This document shows positions 6,951 through 56,144 of a DNA stretch of 64,000 bases, piece after piece. The stretch's first letter is position 1; each line of letters begins with the position of its first letter. Source of the DNA: Limisphaerales bacterium (GTDB lineage: Bacteria > Verrucomicrobiota > Verrucomicrobiia > Limisphaerales > UBA11358); NCBI GenBank assembly GCA_003161635.1, contig PMOA01000050.1, positions 3,091 to 67,090 of the forward strand, given 5' to 3'. A program made the translations under genes and the position numbers. The notes beneath the pieces are model-generated. The model saw nothing but the letters and a program-made list of their open reading frames with translations. It was not told where the DNA came from and ran no database searches.

Positions 6951-9026
6951 CTACGCCATTTTCGCCGCCAACTCGCGCGCCTGCAGGATCAAATCGAGAT
7001 CGTCAGCCAGATTGCCGAAACGGAATTTCGGCAAACCGCTTTGCTGCTGACCGAGCAACTCGCCCGGCCCGCGCAATTTCAAGTCCGTCTCCGCGATGCG
7101 AAAACCATCGTTCGTTTCCTCCAGCACTTTCAAGCGTTCATTCGCCCCGGCAGTTTCCGCGTCGGAAACCAAAATGCAATACGACTCATGTGCGCCGCGT
7201 CCGATGCGCCCGCGCAACTGGTGAAGTTGTGCCAGCCCGAACGCCTCGGCGTTTTCGACGAGCATGACCGTGGCGTTCGGCACATCCACGCCGACCTCGA
7301 TGAGCGAAGTCGCGAGCAATGCGTTCACCCCGCCGGCACGAAATTCCGTCATTACCTCGTCTTTTTCGCGGCTCTTTAATCGCCCGTGCAGCAACCCGAC
7401 GCGAAATGGCGCAAGCAAAGTTTTCAAATTTTCAAATTCTTCCGTCACCGCTTTCAAACCTTTCCCGCCCGATTCTTCGACGCGAGGATAAACCACATAA
7501 GCCTGTCGCCCGGCGGCGAGTTGTTCGCGGATAAACTCCCAAACCTTCGGCAATTTGTCAGCCGTGCGGATGAACGTTTTGATTTGGCCGCGGCCACCGG
7601 GCAATTCGTCAATCACCGACACCTCGAGGTCGCCGTAAAGCGTGAGGCCGAGCGTGCGCGGAATCGGCGTCGCCGTCATCACGAGCAAATGCGGATAACG
7701 ACCTTTGCGCACAAGCTGTTCGCGCTGTGCCACACCAAACTTGTGCTGCTCGTCAATGATGACCAGGCCCAGCTTCGGCAGATCAAAACCGGACTCAATG
7801 AGCGCGTGGGTGCCGATGAACAAGGTTGAAGGTTGCGTGTTGCGTGTTGCGTGATTCGCGCACGCCGTTCGTTGGACGTTGGACGTTCGATGTTCGATGT
7901 TCGATGTTTTCCTGTTCCCCGTTTGCAACTCGACTTTGACTTCCAGTGGTTCAAACCACCTCTGAAAATTGGTGTAGTGCTGTTCCGCCAGAATTTCCGT
8001 CGGGGCCATGAGCGCGACATTAAAGCCGCTTTCCAACGCCATCAGCGCCGTGCAAGCAGCCACGGCGGTTTTGCCCGAACCGACATCGCCTTGCAGCAAC
8101 CGCCGCATCGGATGCGCGCCGCCCATGTCCTTGCGGATTTCGCGCAGCACTTTCGTTTGCGCATCGGTAAGCTTGAAGCCGAGCCGGGCAAGAAACGGTT
8201 TGATGAGGCGATTGTTGCCGCCGCACGGCAGCGCCGCTGCGTGCGATTCAAATTTTTTCCGCCGCTTTTGGATTTGAACCTGCAATTCAATGAACTCGTC
8301 CAGCGCCAGCCGCCGGCGCGCAATTTCCACATCGGTCAGTTCTTCGGGGAAATGAATCATTCGAACCGCATTGGCGCGGCTTGGAAATGTAGCGGCGACT
8401 CGGGAGAGCGCCGCCATCTTTTCTTCCACTGCATTCCACTCAGGGAAATTGGCCGCGCTCTCACGAGACGCGGCTACAAACCTTTCCAGCGTGCGCCAGA
8501 TCAGCCCGCGCAGCCAGCGTTGCGGCAGGCCATCAGTGAGCGGATACACGGGCGCGATGCGGTTGATGTGGATGAAGCTTTCCTCGCCGCCTTCGATGAC
8601 TTCGGTTTCGGGATGAGTCATCACGCGCGGTTTGGTTTCGCTCAATTTGCCGTAAACAAAAACCTCGTCGCCCATGGCAAAATAATTTTGCATGAACGGC
8701 AGGTTCCACCAGCGGCAATGCAACCGCGCCGAGCCGTCGTCGAGAATGATTTCAAAAACAGACTTGTCGCCGCCGCGAAAACGCCTCAGGCCGGATGCGA
8801 CAATCGTGCCGCGCGCCGTGGCCGGTTCATCCTTCGTGAGTTCGGCGATTTTGCGGAAATGCCGGCGGTCTTCATAACGCCGCGGGCAGTGCAACAACAA
8901 ATCCTCGATGTTATGGATGTCGAGGCGCGCAAGTTGAGCCGCGCGTTCCGCGCCGACACCCCAGAGCGAACCCACCAGAGCGGCGAGCGGAGAAGTCTTG
9001 GATTCCGACGGCGACATTGGCCGCAC
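6951..9026 (-). CDS. recG: ATP-dependent DNA helicase RecG
   Basis: Wedge domain, GDVGSGKT (motif I), IIDEQHKFG (motif II), MTATPIPRT and QLHQLRGRIGRG (motif VI). The start is GTG 9026 or ATG 9017. The gene contains an in-frame repeat-encoded segment (see findings). Confidence 0.93.
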   Translation of the reverse strand: MRPMSPSESKTSPLAALVGSLWGVGAERAAQLARLDIHNIEDLLLHCPRRYEDRRHFRKIAELTKDEPATARGTIVASGLRRFRGGDKSVFEIILDDGSARLHCRWWNLPFMQNYFAMGDEVFVYGKLSETKPRVMTHPETEVIEGGEESFIHINRIAPVYPLTDGLPQRWLRGLIWRTLERFVAASRESAANFPEWNAVEEKMAALSRVAATFPSRANAVRMIHFPEELTDVEIARRRLALDEFIELQVQIQKRRKKFESHAAALPCGGNNRLIKPFLARLGFKLTDAQTKVLREIRKDMGGAHPMRRLLQGDVGSGKTAVAACTALMALESGFNVALMAPTEILAEQHYTNFQRWFEPLEVKVELQTGNRKTSNIEHRTSNVQRTACANHATRNTQPSTLFIGTHALIESGFDLPKLGLVIIDEQHKFGVAQREQLVRKGRYPHLLVMTATPIPRTLGLTLYGDLEVSVIDELPGGRGQIKTFIRTADKLPKVWEFIREQLAAGRQAYVVYPRVEESGGKGLKAVTEEFENLKTLLAPFRVGLLHGRLKSREKDEVMTEFRAGGVNALLATSLIEVGVDVPNATVMLVENAEAFGLAQLHQLRGRIGRGAHESYCILVSDAETAGANERLKVLEETNDGFRIAETDLKLRGPGELLGQQQSGLPKFRFGNLADDLDLILQARELAAKMA
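7825..7908. repeat. two heptanucleotide tandem arrays inside recG
   Basis: 7825-7852 holds GTTGAAG plus GTTGCGT x3. 7871-7905 holds GTTGGAC x2 plus GTTCGAT x3. An 18-nt spacer separates them. Confidence 0.9.
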
Positions 9027-9065
9027 GATACAAACCGTTCACCGCCGCTTCAACGGGAAAGCAGT

Positions 9066-9119
9066 GTTGGAGTTCAAGCTTTAGCTTGTTCGGGGACACG
9101 CTGAAGCGTGAACTCCAAC
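9066..9119. repeat. palindromic intergenic element
   Basis: GTTGGAGTTCA ... TGAACTCCAAC are 11-bp arms around an internally self-complementary core. It lies between the recG start and the 3' end of the next gene. Confidence 0.6.
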
Positions 9120-9145
9120 GCGGACAAGCTGTCCGCGCGCCGGAC

Positions 9146-9844
9146 TCAAGCGCGTTTTGGAGTCTTTCGATTTTGTGTTGGTAAGAACCAAGTAGCCAAA
9201 GCGATTGCAATCAACGGCAGCGGGGTATTTAACAGCATGGCTACTAGCAATCCCTGTTCTGCATGATTCAAGCGAGCGTAACTTAAAGATTTAATCATGC
9301 TGCAGGTCTCAAGGGTTAGAAACATGATTGTCAGCACTAGGCAGAAAATAATACGCGACTTCAACAGTAATTTTAACTTCAGCCCTGCTCGCGGAATTCG
9401 GTTGTGTGTGAGAAAAAGAGCAAAAGCCAGCAAGGGCAACAAAAACAGCAAAAGAAAAACTAAGTTCGCACCTGGCGCCTGATGCAACCAAATCGTATCG
9501 GGGAATAATGCACGCAATGCATCTTCCAAAAACCCGCAAAAGTGTGACCAAAAAGTAAAAGTCAATGTGGCAATAGCCATCCAAAAAATCCTTTCGCGCC
9601 AGATTTTGGCCGGGTCGGCTTTGACAAATTCCTCGCCGAGTTGTTGCGGCTGGCCGACGCGCCGGCGCGCCAGCCAGAAGGATTCTTCATCGTTCAAACC
9701 GCGTTGCTGAAATCCGGTGATAGCATCGCGCAGGTGCGTTTCCAATTCGCGTCGGACATCCAACGTGAGACCAGCTTGCGCAGCCAGTTCCTGCCGCCAG
9801 TTTTCAATCGCGGTGTTCAGATCGTAACGGGTTTGATTTTCCAT
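9146..9844 (-). CDS. membrane protein with PadR-associated N-terminal helical prefix domain
   Basis: From ATG 9844 the protein begins MENQTRYDLNTAIENWRQELAAQAGLTLDVRRELETHLRD, the pattern typical of proteins encoded after PadR genes. Four to five TM helices follow. The track ORF start (9964) lies inside the PadR gene. Confidence 0.65.
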   Translation of the reverse strand: MENQTRYDLNTAIENWRQELAAQAGLTLDVRRELETHLRDAITGFQQRGLNDEESFWLARRRVGQPQQLGEEFVKADPAKIWRERIFWMAIATLTFTFWSHFCGFLEDALRALFPDTIWLHQAPGANLVFLLLFLLPLLAFALFLTHNRIPRAGLKLKLLLKSRIIFCLVLTIMFLTLETCSMIKSLSYARLNHAEQGLLVAMLLNTPLPLIAIALATWFLPTQNRKTPKRA

Positions 9845-11954: not shown

Positions 11955-12108
11955 GTAGCAGCCGAGGTAACGAGGCTCATTTCAAATGCAGAAGGCAGAA
12001 TGAAGAATGATGAAGCTATTCCGGGACCGTTTCACGTCAAATAGATGTTTTTTCATTCAGCATTCTTTTTTCATCCTTCAGTTTGAGCCTCCTCACGTCG
12101 GCTCCTAC
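11955..12108. repeat. REP/MITE-like long palindromic element (GTAG...CTAC)
   Basis: GTAGCAGCCGAGGTAACGAGGCTCATTTCAAA ... TTTGAGCCTCCTCACGTCGGCTCCTAC, with a second internal inverted repeat (GAAGGCAGAATGAAGAATGATGAAG / CATTCAGCATTCTTTTTTCATCCTTC). The right end overlaps the coaB stop codon. Confidence 0.8.
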
Positions 12109-12820: not shown

Positions 12821-12889
12821 GTAGGAGACGACGTGAGGAGTCTCAAATTTTCAGGAATACAGTTAGAGACTCGTTACCTCGTCTCCTAC
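12821..12889. repeat. REP-like palindromic element (GTAG...CTAC)
   Basis: GTAGGAGACGACGTGAGGAGTCTCAAA...GAGACTCGTTACCTCGTCTCCTAC. The arm sequence is related to the 11955-12108 element. Confidence 0.85.
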
Positions 12890-28204: not shown

Positions 28205-28263
28205 GTAGCGCCGGCGTCCCGCCTGCACGTTTGTTGATTCTACAGGCGGGACGCCTGTGCTAC
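28205..28263. repeat. REP-like palindromic element (GTAG...CTAC)
   Basis: GTAGCGCCGGCGTCCCGCCTG ... CAGGCGGGACGCCTGTGCTAC, located 50 nt upstream of rtcB. Confidence 0.75.
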
Positions 28264-54248: not shown

Positions 54249-55931
54249 GTGGATATCGCCAAAGAAATTCAGAAGCGGCGCACGTTCGCCATCATCTCGC
54301 ATCCGGACGCAGGCAAGACCACGTTGACGGAAAAGCTGCTGCTTTACGGCGGCGCGGTGCAGCTCGCCGGCTCGGTCACCGCGCGCAAAAACCAGCGCGC
54401 CACCACGTCCGATTGGATGGAGCTGGAAAAAAAGCGCGGTATTTCAATCAGCTCGACCGTGTTGCAGTTCGATTACAACGGCTACCGCCTCAACCTGCTC
54501 GACACGCCGGGCCACAAGGATTTTTCCGAGGACACCTATCGCGTGCTCACCGCCGTGGATTCGGTGGTGATGGTGATTGATTCGGCCAAGGGCATCGAGC
54601 CGCAGACGCGCAAGCTCTTCGAGGTCTGCCGCCAGCGCGGCGTGCCGATCTTCACGTTCATGAACAAGTGCGACCGGCCCATGAAAGACCCGCTCGCGCT
54701 GCTCGATGAACTGGAGCACGTGCTCGGCATCGGCGCGTTCCCGGTGAACTGGCCCATCGGCAACGGGTTCGACTTCCAGGGCGTCTATGACCGGCAGACG
54801 AAGCTGATGCATTTGTTCGAGCGCACCGTGGGCGGCCAATACCGCGCGCCAGTGCAGGTCGGTGGACTGGACGATCCCGCCATTCGCGGTCAACTCGACG
54901 ACGCGACGTTTCACAAAACGGTTGAAGAACTCGAAATGCTCGAACACGCCGGGCACGACTGGGATGACGCCGCCGTGCTCGCGGACAAAACCACGCCGGT
55001 GTTCTTCGGCAGCGCCAGCAACAACTTCGGCGTGCAGCTTCTGCTCGACGGTTTCCTCAAACACGCGCCCGGTCCGAAGGGGAGGCATTCCGCCACACCC
55101 GTAGGACAGGCTTTCAGCCTGTCTCAAACTGAAAAAGAAAATAATCATGAAGATGGAGACAGGCGCGACGCCCGTCCTACGTTCATCGCACCGGAGCACC
55201 CTGCTTTCTCCGGGTTCATCTTCAAAATCCAGGCGAACATGGACCCGAAACACCGCGACCGCATCGCGTTCGTCCGCGTTTGCTCCGGCAAATTCGAGCG
55301 CGGCATGACGGTGCATCACTCGCGTTCCGGGAAAAAGGTGCGCCTCTCCAGCTCGCACAAACTGTTCGGCAACGAACGCGAGACGGTGGACGAGGCGTAT
55401 CCCGGCGACGTCATCGGTCTCGTCGGCCACGACAGCTTCGGCATCGGCGACACGCTCACGGCCGAGCCGGGCATCGCCTACAAGGAAATCCCACGCTTCA
55501 CGCCGGAAGCCTTCAGCTATCTGCACAATCCGAACACGGCCAAGTTCAAGCAATTCCGCCAAGGCCTGGAGCAACTGTTGCAGGAGGGCGTTATCCAGGC
55601 GCTCTACCTGCGTAATTCCACCGTCAAGGTGCCGTTGCTCGCGGCGGTCGGCCCGTTGCAATTCGAGGTCGTGCAATTCCGTCTCGAAAACGAATACGGC
55701 GCGGTGTCGCGCCTCGAATCCACGCCCTGGACGGTCGTGCGCTGGCTGCCAGCGGACATGAAAGAAGACGAACTCGACGCCCTGTCGCTGCCGACCGGCT
55801 CACGGGTCGCCTACGACGTGGGCAAAAATTCCGTGGTGTTGTTCCCCAACGAATGGTCGGCGGATTATTTCACCAAAACCAACGAGCGGGTTCCGCTTTC
55901 GGCTCTGCCCGTCCAGACGGCACGGGAATAA
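54249..55931 (+). CDS. prfC: peptide chain release factor 3
   Basis: GTG start. RRTFAIISHPDAGKTTLTEKLL, LLDTPGHKDF, NKCDR and FKIQANMDPKHRDRIAF. Contains an in-frame palindromic insert (see findings). Confidence 0.95.
   Translation: MDIAKEIQKRRTFAIISHPDAGKTTLTEKLLLYGGAVQLAGSVTARKNQRATTSDWMELEKKRGISISSTVLQFDYNGYRLNLLDTPGHKDFSEDTYRVLTAVDSVVMVIDSAKGIEPQTRKLFEVCRQRGVPIFTFMNKCDRPMKDPLALLDELEHVLGIGAFPVNWPIGNGFDFQGVYDRQTKLMHLFERTVGGQYRAPVQVGGLDDPAIRGQLDDATFHKTVEELEMLEHAGHDWDDAAVLADKTTPVFFGSASNNFGVQLLLDGFLKHAPGPKGRHSATPVGQAFSLSQTEKENNHEDGDRRDARPTFIAPEHPAFSGFIFKIQANMDPKHRDRIAFVRVCSGKFERGMTVHHSRSGKKVRLSSSHKLFGNERETVDEAYPGDVIGLVGHDSFGIGDTLTAEPGIAYKEIPRFTPEAFSYLHNPNTAKFKQFRQGLEQLLQEGVIQALYLRNSTVKVPLLAAVGPLQFEVVQFRLENEYGAVSRLESTPWTVVRWLPADMKEDELDALSLPTGSRVAYDVGKNSVVLFPNEWSADYFTKTNERVPLSALPVQTARE
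55101..55181. repeat. REP-like palindromic element (GTAG...CTAC) in frame inside prfC
   Basis: GTAGGACAGGCTTTCAGCCTGTCTC ...30 nt... GAGACAGGCGCGACGCCCGTCCTAC. It is exactly 27 codons (VGQAFSLSQTEKENNHEDGDRRDARPT). Confidence 0.85.
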
Positions 55932-55956: not shown

Positions 55957-56028
55957 GGGACAGCGCGTCCACCCTCCGCAGTACTGCTACGGAGGACGGG
56001 CTGCGCTGTCCGGATCCCGCAATGCGGG
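55957..56028 (+). terminator. hairpin cluster downstream of prfC (repeat-derived, possible terminator)
   Basis: GGGACAGCGC...CCCTCCG...CGGAGG...GCGCTGTCC is a long imperfect hairpin, followed by CCCGC-AAT-GCGGG. There is no clear T-run. Confidence 0.4.
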
Positions 56029-56144
56029 ACGGCGTCCCTACCAACGGAAATGATACATTATCAGGTTCGGGCTTGTGTTCCGGGGTTGGGGATTGGAAGA
56101 TTCATCTCCAAACCAGTCTGTAGAAACAACAACAGTTTTTAACT

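Follow-up and report, generated by a model that had tools for sequence, protein, structure and literature searches.

The question raised by this locus is how a palindromic repeat comes to lie, in frame, inside an intact gene for a translation factor. The gene is prfC, which encodes peptide chain release factor 3 (RF3), and it lies in a 64,000-nucleotide stretch of contig PMOA01000050.1 (referred to as the window) from an uncultured bacterium of the Limisphaerales, in the phylum Verrucomicrobiota. A previous reading made from the letters without database searches (the sequence-only reading) described in this gene a palindrome that starts on a codon boundary, adds 27 codons and resembles repetitive extragenic palindromic (REP) elements. 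The position, frame and length are borne out by the sequence, the open reading frame (ORF) and its translation, with the palindrome proper measuring 80 nt. The element is very probably a selfish element of the REPIN type (REP doublet forming a hairpin), which a permissive linker of RF3 tolerates as a passenger peptide. The kind itself, an intragenic and translated REP, is already published for the same phylum and the same gene.

The element and its host gene

The element is an 80-nt doublet at 55101-55180, consisting of two inverted 25-nt REP units with GTAG heads, separated by a 30-nt A/T-rich spacer. The gene and the parts of the element are as follows, in positions of the window.

54249-55931, plus strand: prfC (peptide chain release factor 3), an intact ORF of 560 amino acids that hosts the element
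55101-55125, plus strand: left REP unit, family T1, GTAGGACAGGCTTTCAGCCTGTCTC; GTAG head, hairpin GACAGGC-TTTCA-GCCTGTC, then TC
55126-55155, plus strand: spacer, 30 nt, A/T-rich, AAACTGAAAAAGAAAATAATCATGAAGATG; its ends, AAACT... and ...AGATG, are common to other T1 copies (L049, L070, L099)
55156-55180, minus strand: right REP unit, family T1, inverted, GAGACAGGCGCGACGCCCGTCCTAC; minus-strand reading GTAGGACGGGCGTCGCGCCTGTCTC
55101-55181, plus strand: 27 in-frame codons, RF3 residues 285-311, at the junction of the G domain and domain II; peptide VGQAFSLSQTEKENNHEDGDRRDARPT

Both arms have the make-up of the T1 unit, in which a GTAG head is followed by a GC-rich stem of 7 bp, a loop of 5 nt and a terminal TC, 25 nt in all. 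Each arm alone also forms a small hairpin, and an inverted-repeat search pairs the two as 31-nt arms (55100-55130 and 55151-55181) that are 77% complementary. The RNA fold of the region reaches -38 kcal/mol, compared with -20.2 +/- 3.0 kcal/mol for 200 shuffled sequences (z = -6.0), none of which folded as well. No Rfam family was found at the element. The flanking sequence reads ...CACCC on the 5' side and GTTCA... on the 3' side. Position 55101 is the start of a codon, since (55101-54249)/3 = 284, and the 81 nt from 55101 to 55181 are free of stop codons. One example of a predicted tryptic peptide for the insert-bearing RF3 is HSATPVGQAFSLSQTEK.

The prfC product matches solved RF3 structures over both of its halves, with E-values down to 1e-145 (HMMER against the PDB). 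A JGI protein named RF3 (P0001) is identical to it, and the precomputed Pfam domains of that protein (PF00009 GTP_EFTU; PF03144/PF22042 EF-G_D2/GTP_EFTU_D2; PF16658 RF3_C) make up the full-length RF3 architecture of G domain, EF-Tu-like domain II and RF3 C-terminal domain. Outside the insert, the ratio of nonsynonymous to synonymous divergence (dN/dS) against six relatives is 0.06-0.11, and on these sequence comparisons the gene is under purifying selection. The sequence-only reading had kept a pseudogene in mind; the intact 560-residue ORF and the dN/dS values speak for a maintained gene. Its label of the gene as 'essential-type' was overstated, as prfC is dispensable in Escherichia coli. A JGI metagenome contig (L127), whose gene is 99-100% identical to the window's prfC, carries the identical insert, and this independent contig excludes an assembly artefact.

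The 27 codons stand out from other RF3 proteins. HMMER alignments to RF3 structures (7siq, 3vqt, 2h5e and others) span residues 2-281/285 of the query and restart at residue 312, so that ~26-27 residues of the window's RF3 have no counterpart in the solved structures. A wider survey used cluster representatives (at most 50% identity) of a library of 1.84 billion proteins, which gave 27 full-length RF3s among the best matches. The segment equivalent to query residues 277-314 measures 11 amino acids in 22 of these 27 proteins, 12-17 in the other five and 38 in the window. The excess of about 27 residues that the sequence-only reading had estimated is therefore recovered both from structures and from this alignment of diverse orthologues, all of which have the short loop of 11-17 residues and lack the insert. 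The insert site follows the last G-domain helix and precedes the first strand of domain II. In an AlphaFold (AF2) model that is poor overall (mean predicted local distance difference test score, pLDDT, of 58.5), residues 275-310 have a pLDDT below 50 and show no secondary structure. The segment is likely a surface linker.

Turnover of palindromic families at the prfC site

An alignment of 120 prfC relatives (85-100% identity) shows that the loop is occupied in several ways. It holds T1, or a recognisably decayed T1, in ~73 of the 120, a second family (T2; FGVPPSGG...PPEGGTPN) in 25, and a third (T3; VAAEVTRR...PPPHVGGY) in seven. It is empty (VMGGIEI) in 14, and P0051 represents a near-complete deletion. 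Three of the relatives counted under T1 or T2 (P0023, P0061 and P0105) have nested or mosaic cassettes. The DNA of each cassette type forms perfect or near-perfect inverted arms, and T2 and T3 are, like T1, multi-copy in the loci that were fetched. T3 as it occurs in prfC relatives (e.g. L003) is the family of both intergenic doublets near 12 kb in the window.

Relatedness was judged from pairwise distances, average-linkage ordering, synonymous divergence (dS) and the positions of differences, which do not amount to a proper phylogeny. By these measures the type of cassette does not follow the relatedness of the prfC genes. The nearest relatives, L126 and L005, have T2 in prfC at a dS of only 0.14-0.19 from the window. 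Their flanks are 97.6% and 91-94% identical to it at the nucleotide level, and the differences are confined to the two 100-nt bins that contain the cassette. L001, at a dS of 0.57, has T1. The spacer peptide shows a similar mismatch. P0003 has the exact spacer peptide of the window, QTEKENNHEDGDRRDA, despite a difference of 7.8% in the rest of the protein, and the spacer is a different one in P0002, which is closer to the window (4.9% different). Here again, the history of the cassette seems to be separate from that of the gene.

The pattern suggests a fast local turnover at a site in prfC that may be permissive or targeted. Either the site has been repeatedly re-colonised or replaced, or short patches have been exchanged between lineages. 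It is possible, although doubtful, that the RF3 linker is a preferred landing pad, at which T1, T2, T3 and the GTAG-17 elements of Opitutus repeatedly insert and replace one another in a manner directed by the site or its structure. Such replacement could proceed, for example, if a REP-associated tyrosine transposase (RAYT) inserted a new REP into a REP hairpin already present, or next to it. If this were true, the near-identical prfC alleles (dS 0.14) would constitute a natural and datable record of REP-by-REP replacement.

T1 as a dispersed repeat family

The T1 unit is not peculiar to prfC. An exact-pattern scan with GTAGGACRGGCNNNNNGCCTGTCTC over one genome per GTDB species identified at least 120 loci. 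With the window and L001 included, the tally comes to at least 166 T1 units in at least 133 elements, of which the scan alone contributes 131 elements. All counts of T1 copies given here and below are among the matches listed. Inverted doublets make up 97 of the 133 elements, with size classes of ~60-90 nt and ~120-140 nt, and the other 36 are single units. The hosts are mostly metagenome-assembled genomes (MAGs) of Verrucomicrobiota (Verrucomicrobiia, Limisphaerales), which often have several loci each, up to 7-8; a minority of loci are in MAGs labelled Planctomycetota, Acidobacteriota, Cyanobacteriota or Chloroflexota. The ends of the spacer are common among T1 copies (GTCTC[T/A]AACT ... AGATGGAGAC), and homology therefore reaches beyond the arms. 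There is no indication of a target-site duplication, as 65 of 87 doublets lack a flanking direct repeat and the rest have one of at most 3 nt. The immediate flanks show a preference for C at position -1 (61%) and G at position +1 (53%). The description of the prfC palindrome as REP-like thus holds: it belongs to a multi-copy dispersed repeat with a GTAG head and a GC-rich hairpin, usually arranged in inverted doublets. T1 is best regarded as a family of selfish, non-autonomous repeats in Verrucomicrobiota.

A candidate transposase is found at one of these loci (L064), in a Verrucomicrobiales MAG. It is a gene with a Y1_Tnp domain (PF01797, E 9e-8), bordered on either side by T1 REPs. Among NCBIfam models it scores best with NF047646 'REP-associated tyrosine transposase' (70.7 bits, below the equivalog cut-off of 80), against 25.9 bits for IS200. 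The RAYT-like protein has an HVH motif and a C-terminal motif containing a Tyr. This gene was first found by phmmer with E. coli RayT as the query (a single weak match, E 3e-4), and was retained after the Pfam and NCBIfam matches. When the L064 protein was used as the query, no additional RAYT appeared among the ORFs of the fetched loci. Judged by sequence, the anatomy of T1 is that of a REP/REPIN-RAYT system, in which mobilisation by such an enzyme can be inferred.

Three loci or sets of loci deserve separate description. At L064 (1-800, minus strand), an ORF for a zinc-type alcohol dehydrogenase, a T1-type doublet, the RAYT-like ORF and a downstream T1 REP follow one another without an intervening stop. 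In-frame read-through of the REPs gives GRTGVSPV... and GRTGILPV..., and the downstream REP marks the end of the locus block. At L059 (5993-7119; Pirellulales MAG, JAXMBK010000003.1), seven T1-type units in the same orientation are spaced by ~154-168 nt within long minus-strand ORFs, forming a tandem array and not inverted doublets. Finally, six T1 loci (L008, L018, L030, L077, L102 and L119) come from four MAGs labelled Bifidobacterium or Bifidobacteriaceae (binchicken, co-assembly bins), and L008 has T3 units too. Because the T1 and T3 families are otherwise typical of Verrucomicrobiota, these labels suggest mis-binned or mislabelled contigs, not true actinobacterial REPs.

In-frame copies in other genes

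Of the 131 T1 elements scanned, 25 are in frame within long ORFs with Pfam domains. In ~20 of the 25 the domains flank or span the element, and in the remainder they lie on one side only. The host proteins are varied. DnaE and IspG each carry T1 at the same site in two MAGs, and LeuRS carries it at two different sites. Other hosts are IleRS, Gln/GluRS, PheT, PurL, a PurM-like AIRS protein and MutS. The list further includes a TrpE-like enzyme, a Mur ligase, MqnC/CofH, a class-III aminotransferase, peptidase U32, GH95 and alpha-2-macroglobulin, as well as a Type ISP restriction enzyme, an N6-methylase, a sensor with Reg_prop repeats, an LVIVD-repeat protein and DUF5107-TPR proteins (two MAGs).

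The peptides encoded by these copies recur as recognisable cassettes, with VGQASRLS... or RRTGVAPVS... on the left and ...DRRDACPT or ...ETGATPVL on the right. Among the in-gene copies listed, the forward frame of the T1 unit that contains TAG is never used. Comparison of the two LeuRS genes with T1 at different sites gave no clean reciprocal empty sites, both sites being variable loops in both proteins.

Some ORFs appear to hold more than one family. The peptidase U32 ORF of L071 apparently has a T2 and a T1 doublet together (7810-7856 and 7088-7154), and the Type ISP restriction enzyme ORF of L107 apparently has a T3 and a T1 doublet (164-233 and 1426-1495). These recall the double insertions reported for uvrA of Opitutus terrae. 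L002, a locus of a 4.64-Mb relative whose prfC has T2, holds another T2 doublet in frame in clpB (9184-9247; gene 6973-9624). The encoded peptide, ESRLQAESGRRGSDKPPKGGTP, separates the sensor-2 region (TSNLGS...IQE) from the HFRPEFLNR motif. The matching stretch of E. coli ClpB is presumably ~18 residues shorter.

Origin of the insertion and alternative explanations

The course of events that we favour is that a RAYT, which is a tyrosine transposase of the HUH/Y1 type with single-stranded hairpin DNA as its substrate, would have copied a T1 doublet into the linker segment of prfC, and that the doublet would now be translated into 27 passenger residues of a functional RF3. We propose that T1 persists in prfC because the copy is stop-free, the frame is kept and the loop tolerates extra residues. 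The peptide probably has no function of its own and would be neutral.

A number of results weigh against this account. Translation of the peptide is deduced from the integrity of the ORF. The window has a single T1 copy, the one in prfC, and no RAYT gene, and the link to a RAYT comes from one MAG (L064) with an NCBIfam score under the cut-off. A clean empty site was not found in a very close relative, the closest ones carrying another element, and the empty alleles differ in the flanking loop codons too. The lengths of the in-gene T1 copies, measured from GTAG to CTAC, fall into all three classes modulo 3. Frame preservation is therefore not built into the element, and would have to come from selection or a survivor effect, extra bases or later indels. 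Lastly, the heads and stems of the T1 copies of the window and L001 differ at 1 of 40 positions, while the loops and spacer differ at 12 of 40 (Fisher p = 0.0015). The arms are therefore not evolving neutrally, which leaves room for function or homogenisation.

This conservation of the heads and stems, retained at a dS of 0.57, also favours exaptation, in which the mRNA hairpin (as a translational pause or stability element) or the peptide serves the expression or function of RF3 and is kept by selection. So do the very stable RNA hairpin and the presence of T1 or T1-derived inserts in ~73 of the 120 relatives. However, close relatives carry T2, T3, decayed remnants or nothing at this site in proteins that are otherwise 86-97% identical, and over 20 unrelated proteins share the cassette. 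In addition, conservation of the stems is equally expected if a transposase recognises them, if the copies undergo gene conversion, or if the element was re-inserted recently. Exaptation of the prfC copy thus seems unlikely, and the passenger peptide remains the preferred explanation.

A conventional miniature inverted-repeat transposable element (MITE) would be moved by a DDE transposase via its terminal inverted repeats, and would not be a RAYT-dependent REP doublet. T1 elements do have terminal inverted repeats, a length of 60-140 nt and no coding capacity, and their mobilisation by a RAYT is itself putative. However, most doublets lack a flanking direct repeat and none has one longer than 3 nt, single units occur alone (36 of 133 elements), each arm is a GTAG-headed, REP-like hairpin, and the only transposase seen adjoining T1 units is Y1/RAYT-like. 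A DDE-type MITE was rejected on the missing target-site duplication, the REP-type arms and the Y1-type transposase neighbour, and it is considered highly improbable. The length of the loop is variable in this clade, but an ordinary lineage-specific RF3 loop that is palindromic by chance, a prfC pseudogene or an assembly artefact can be dismissed, given the occurrence of the exact 25-nt unit at 120 or more other loci, a fold at z = -6, the identical insert in the independent contig L127, and an intact ORF with a dN/dS of 0.06-0.11.

Comparison with known systems

The GTAG- and CGTC-tagged REP superfamilies were defined by Di Nocera, De Gregorio and Rocco (2013; BMC Genomics 14:522; PMC3733652). 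Additional file 3 of that paper gives ~70 intragenic GTAG REPs in O. terrae. The paper describes a GTAG-17 dimer in prfC of this organism (Oter_2700, residues 304-318), and further intragenic REPs in PurL, an N-6 DNA methylase and DnaE2. It contradicts the sequence-only reading, in which no described equivalent was known for bacteria of the Planctomycetes-Verrucomicrobia-Chlamydiae (PVC) group. The O. terrae REPs resemble T1 in belonging to the same phylum and in occurring as GTAG-headed singles and dimers, in frame in known genes, with 20-30 residues encoded. Their hosts PurL, N-6 methylase, DnaE2 and prfC represent protein families that also hold in-frame REPs here. The peptides of O. terrae GTAG-19 (GTGVPPV, GTGVSPV, TTGATPVL) closely match those of T1 (RTGVPPVS, ETGATPVL) in corresponding frames. 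This comparison, made on peptides only, makes it probable that T1 and GTAG-19 are related. The prfC genes themselves carry different REP families, T1 here and GTAG-17 in O. terrae; judging from the residue numbers, the O. terrae site would be in the same loop. Unlike O. terrae, a member of the Opitutales, the host here belongs to the uncultured, Limisphaerales-like Verrucomicrobiia. No description was found in PMC3733652 of alternative families at one site in near-identical alleles, nor of a spread across uncultured Verrucomicrobiota.

Taken alone, the prfC insertion adds a further case of selfish palindromic DNA carried as an extra peptide in a housekeeping protein, a phenomenon catalogued for a verrucomicrobium in 2013. 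What goes beyond that catalogue is the occurrence of alternative REP families at the same few codons of prfC in otherwise nearly identical genes. The prfC loop is a concrete locus for studying the choice of REP insertion sites and the rate of turnover. In-frame REPs are also widespread across core genes of uncultured Verrucomicrobiota (DnaE, several aminoacyl-tRNA synthetases, IspG, PurL and MutS), and their recognisable peptide cassettes matter for annotation and for structural and phylogenetic work on the host proteins.

REP/REPIN-RAYT systems were reportedly set out by Nunvar in 2010, by Bertels and Rainey in 2011 and by Ton-Hoang in 2012. T1 is like them in its GTAG head and GC-rich imperfect hairpin and its inverted spaced doublets, and its copies are dispersed over many MAGs. 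The likeness extends to the missing target-site duplication and may, in L064 only, include a Y1 transposase gene between copies of the same REP. Classical REPs and REPINs are almost entirely extragenic, whereas approximately one-fifth of the recovered T1 copies are inside ORFs. The prfC copy accordingly departs from the extragenic location of classical REPs, and the same departure is seen in O. terrae (PMC3733652).

MITEs such as Nezha, Correia/NEMIS and ERIC, which sometimes occur in ORFs, are like T1 in being small, non-coding inverted-repeat elements that are open to read-through. They have terminal inverted repeats like those of insertion sequences (IS), target-site duplications and DDE transposases, whereas T1 lacks such a duplication and has arms of the REP type.

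Rickettsia palindromic elements (RPEs), reportedly described by Ogata and colleagues in Science in 2000, are said to lie in frame in many housekeeping genes, where their peptides are tolerated. The sequence-only reading had seen the prfC element as mirroring them, a likeness taken here as analogy and not as membership of the group. T1 is similarly palindromic, in frame and stop-free in a gene under purifying selection, with translation predicted in this case. However, T1 is of the GTAG type and probably has no sequence relationship to RPEs, a distinction drawn from the literature description. RPE-1 is also longer than T1, and RPEs occur in an alphaproteobacterium that is obligately intracellular. 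According to PMC3733652, RPE-4 and RPE-6 are REPs of the CGTC type.

Other repeats in the window

Three further palindromic doublets are intergenic.

11955-12108, no strand assigned: intergenic T3 doublet, GTAGSAGNCGASGTRASGAG...
12821-12889, no strand assigned: second intergenic T3 doublet
28205-28263, no strand assigned: intergenic GTAG...CTAC doublet of another family, GTAGCRCMGGCGTCCCGCCTG

The sequence-only reading had given these elements, at 12.0, 12.8 and 28.2 kb, the same architecture as the one in prfC. The GTAG...CTAC architecture is indeed common to all, but they are of other sequence families.

The recG gene (ORF 6954-9038, minus strand) had been put forward as a possible second case of an intragenic palindrome. 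The segment in question (7832-7908) instead consists of three adjacent runs of tandem heptanucleotides, which on the coding strand are ACATCGA (~3.4 copies), ACGTCCA (~2.6 copies) and ACACGCA (~3.1 copies). These are tandem repeats and not a palindromic REP. In frame they encode ...KTSNIEHRTSNVQRTACANHATRNTQPST..., directly before the IGTHAL motif. A heptamer period is unusual in a coding region.

The region between prfC and the next gene (55958-56041) contains a perfect 9-bp inverted repeat, GGACAGCGC and GCGCTGTCC, with its arms 36 nt apart and a second hairpin inside. Adjoining this repeat, at ~56013-56041 on the minus strand, is a GTAG-headed hairpin, GTAGGGACGCCGTCCCGCATTGCGGGA. Both are REP-like elements of other families and, from their place directly 3' of prfC, could serve as a terminator.

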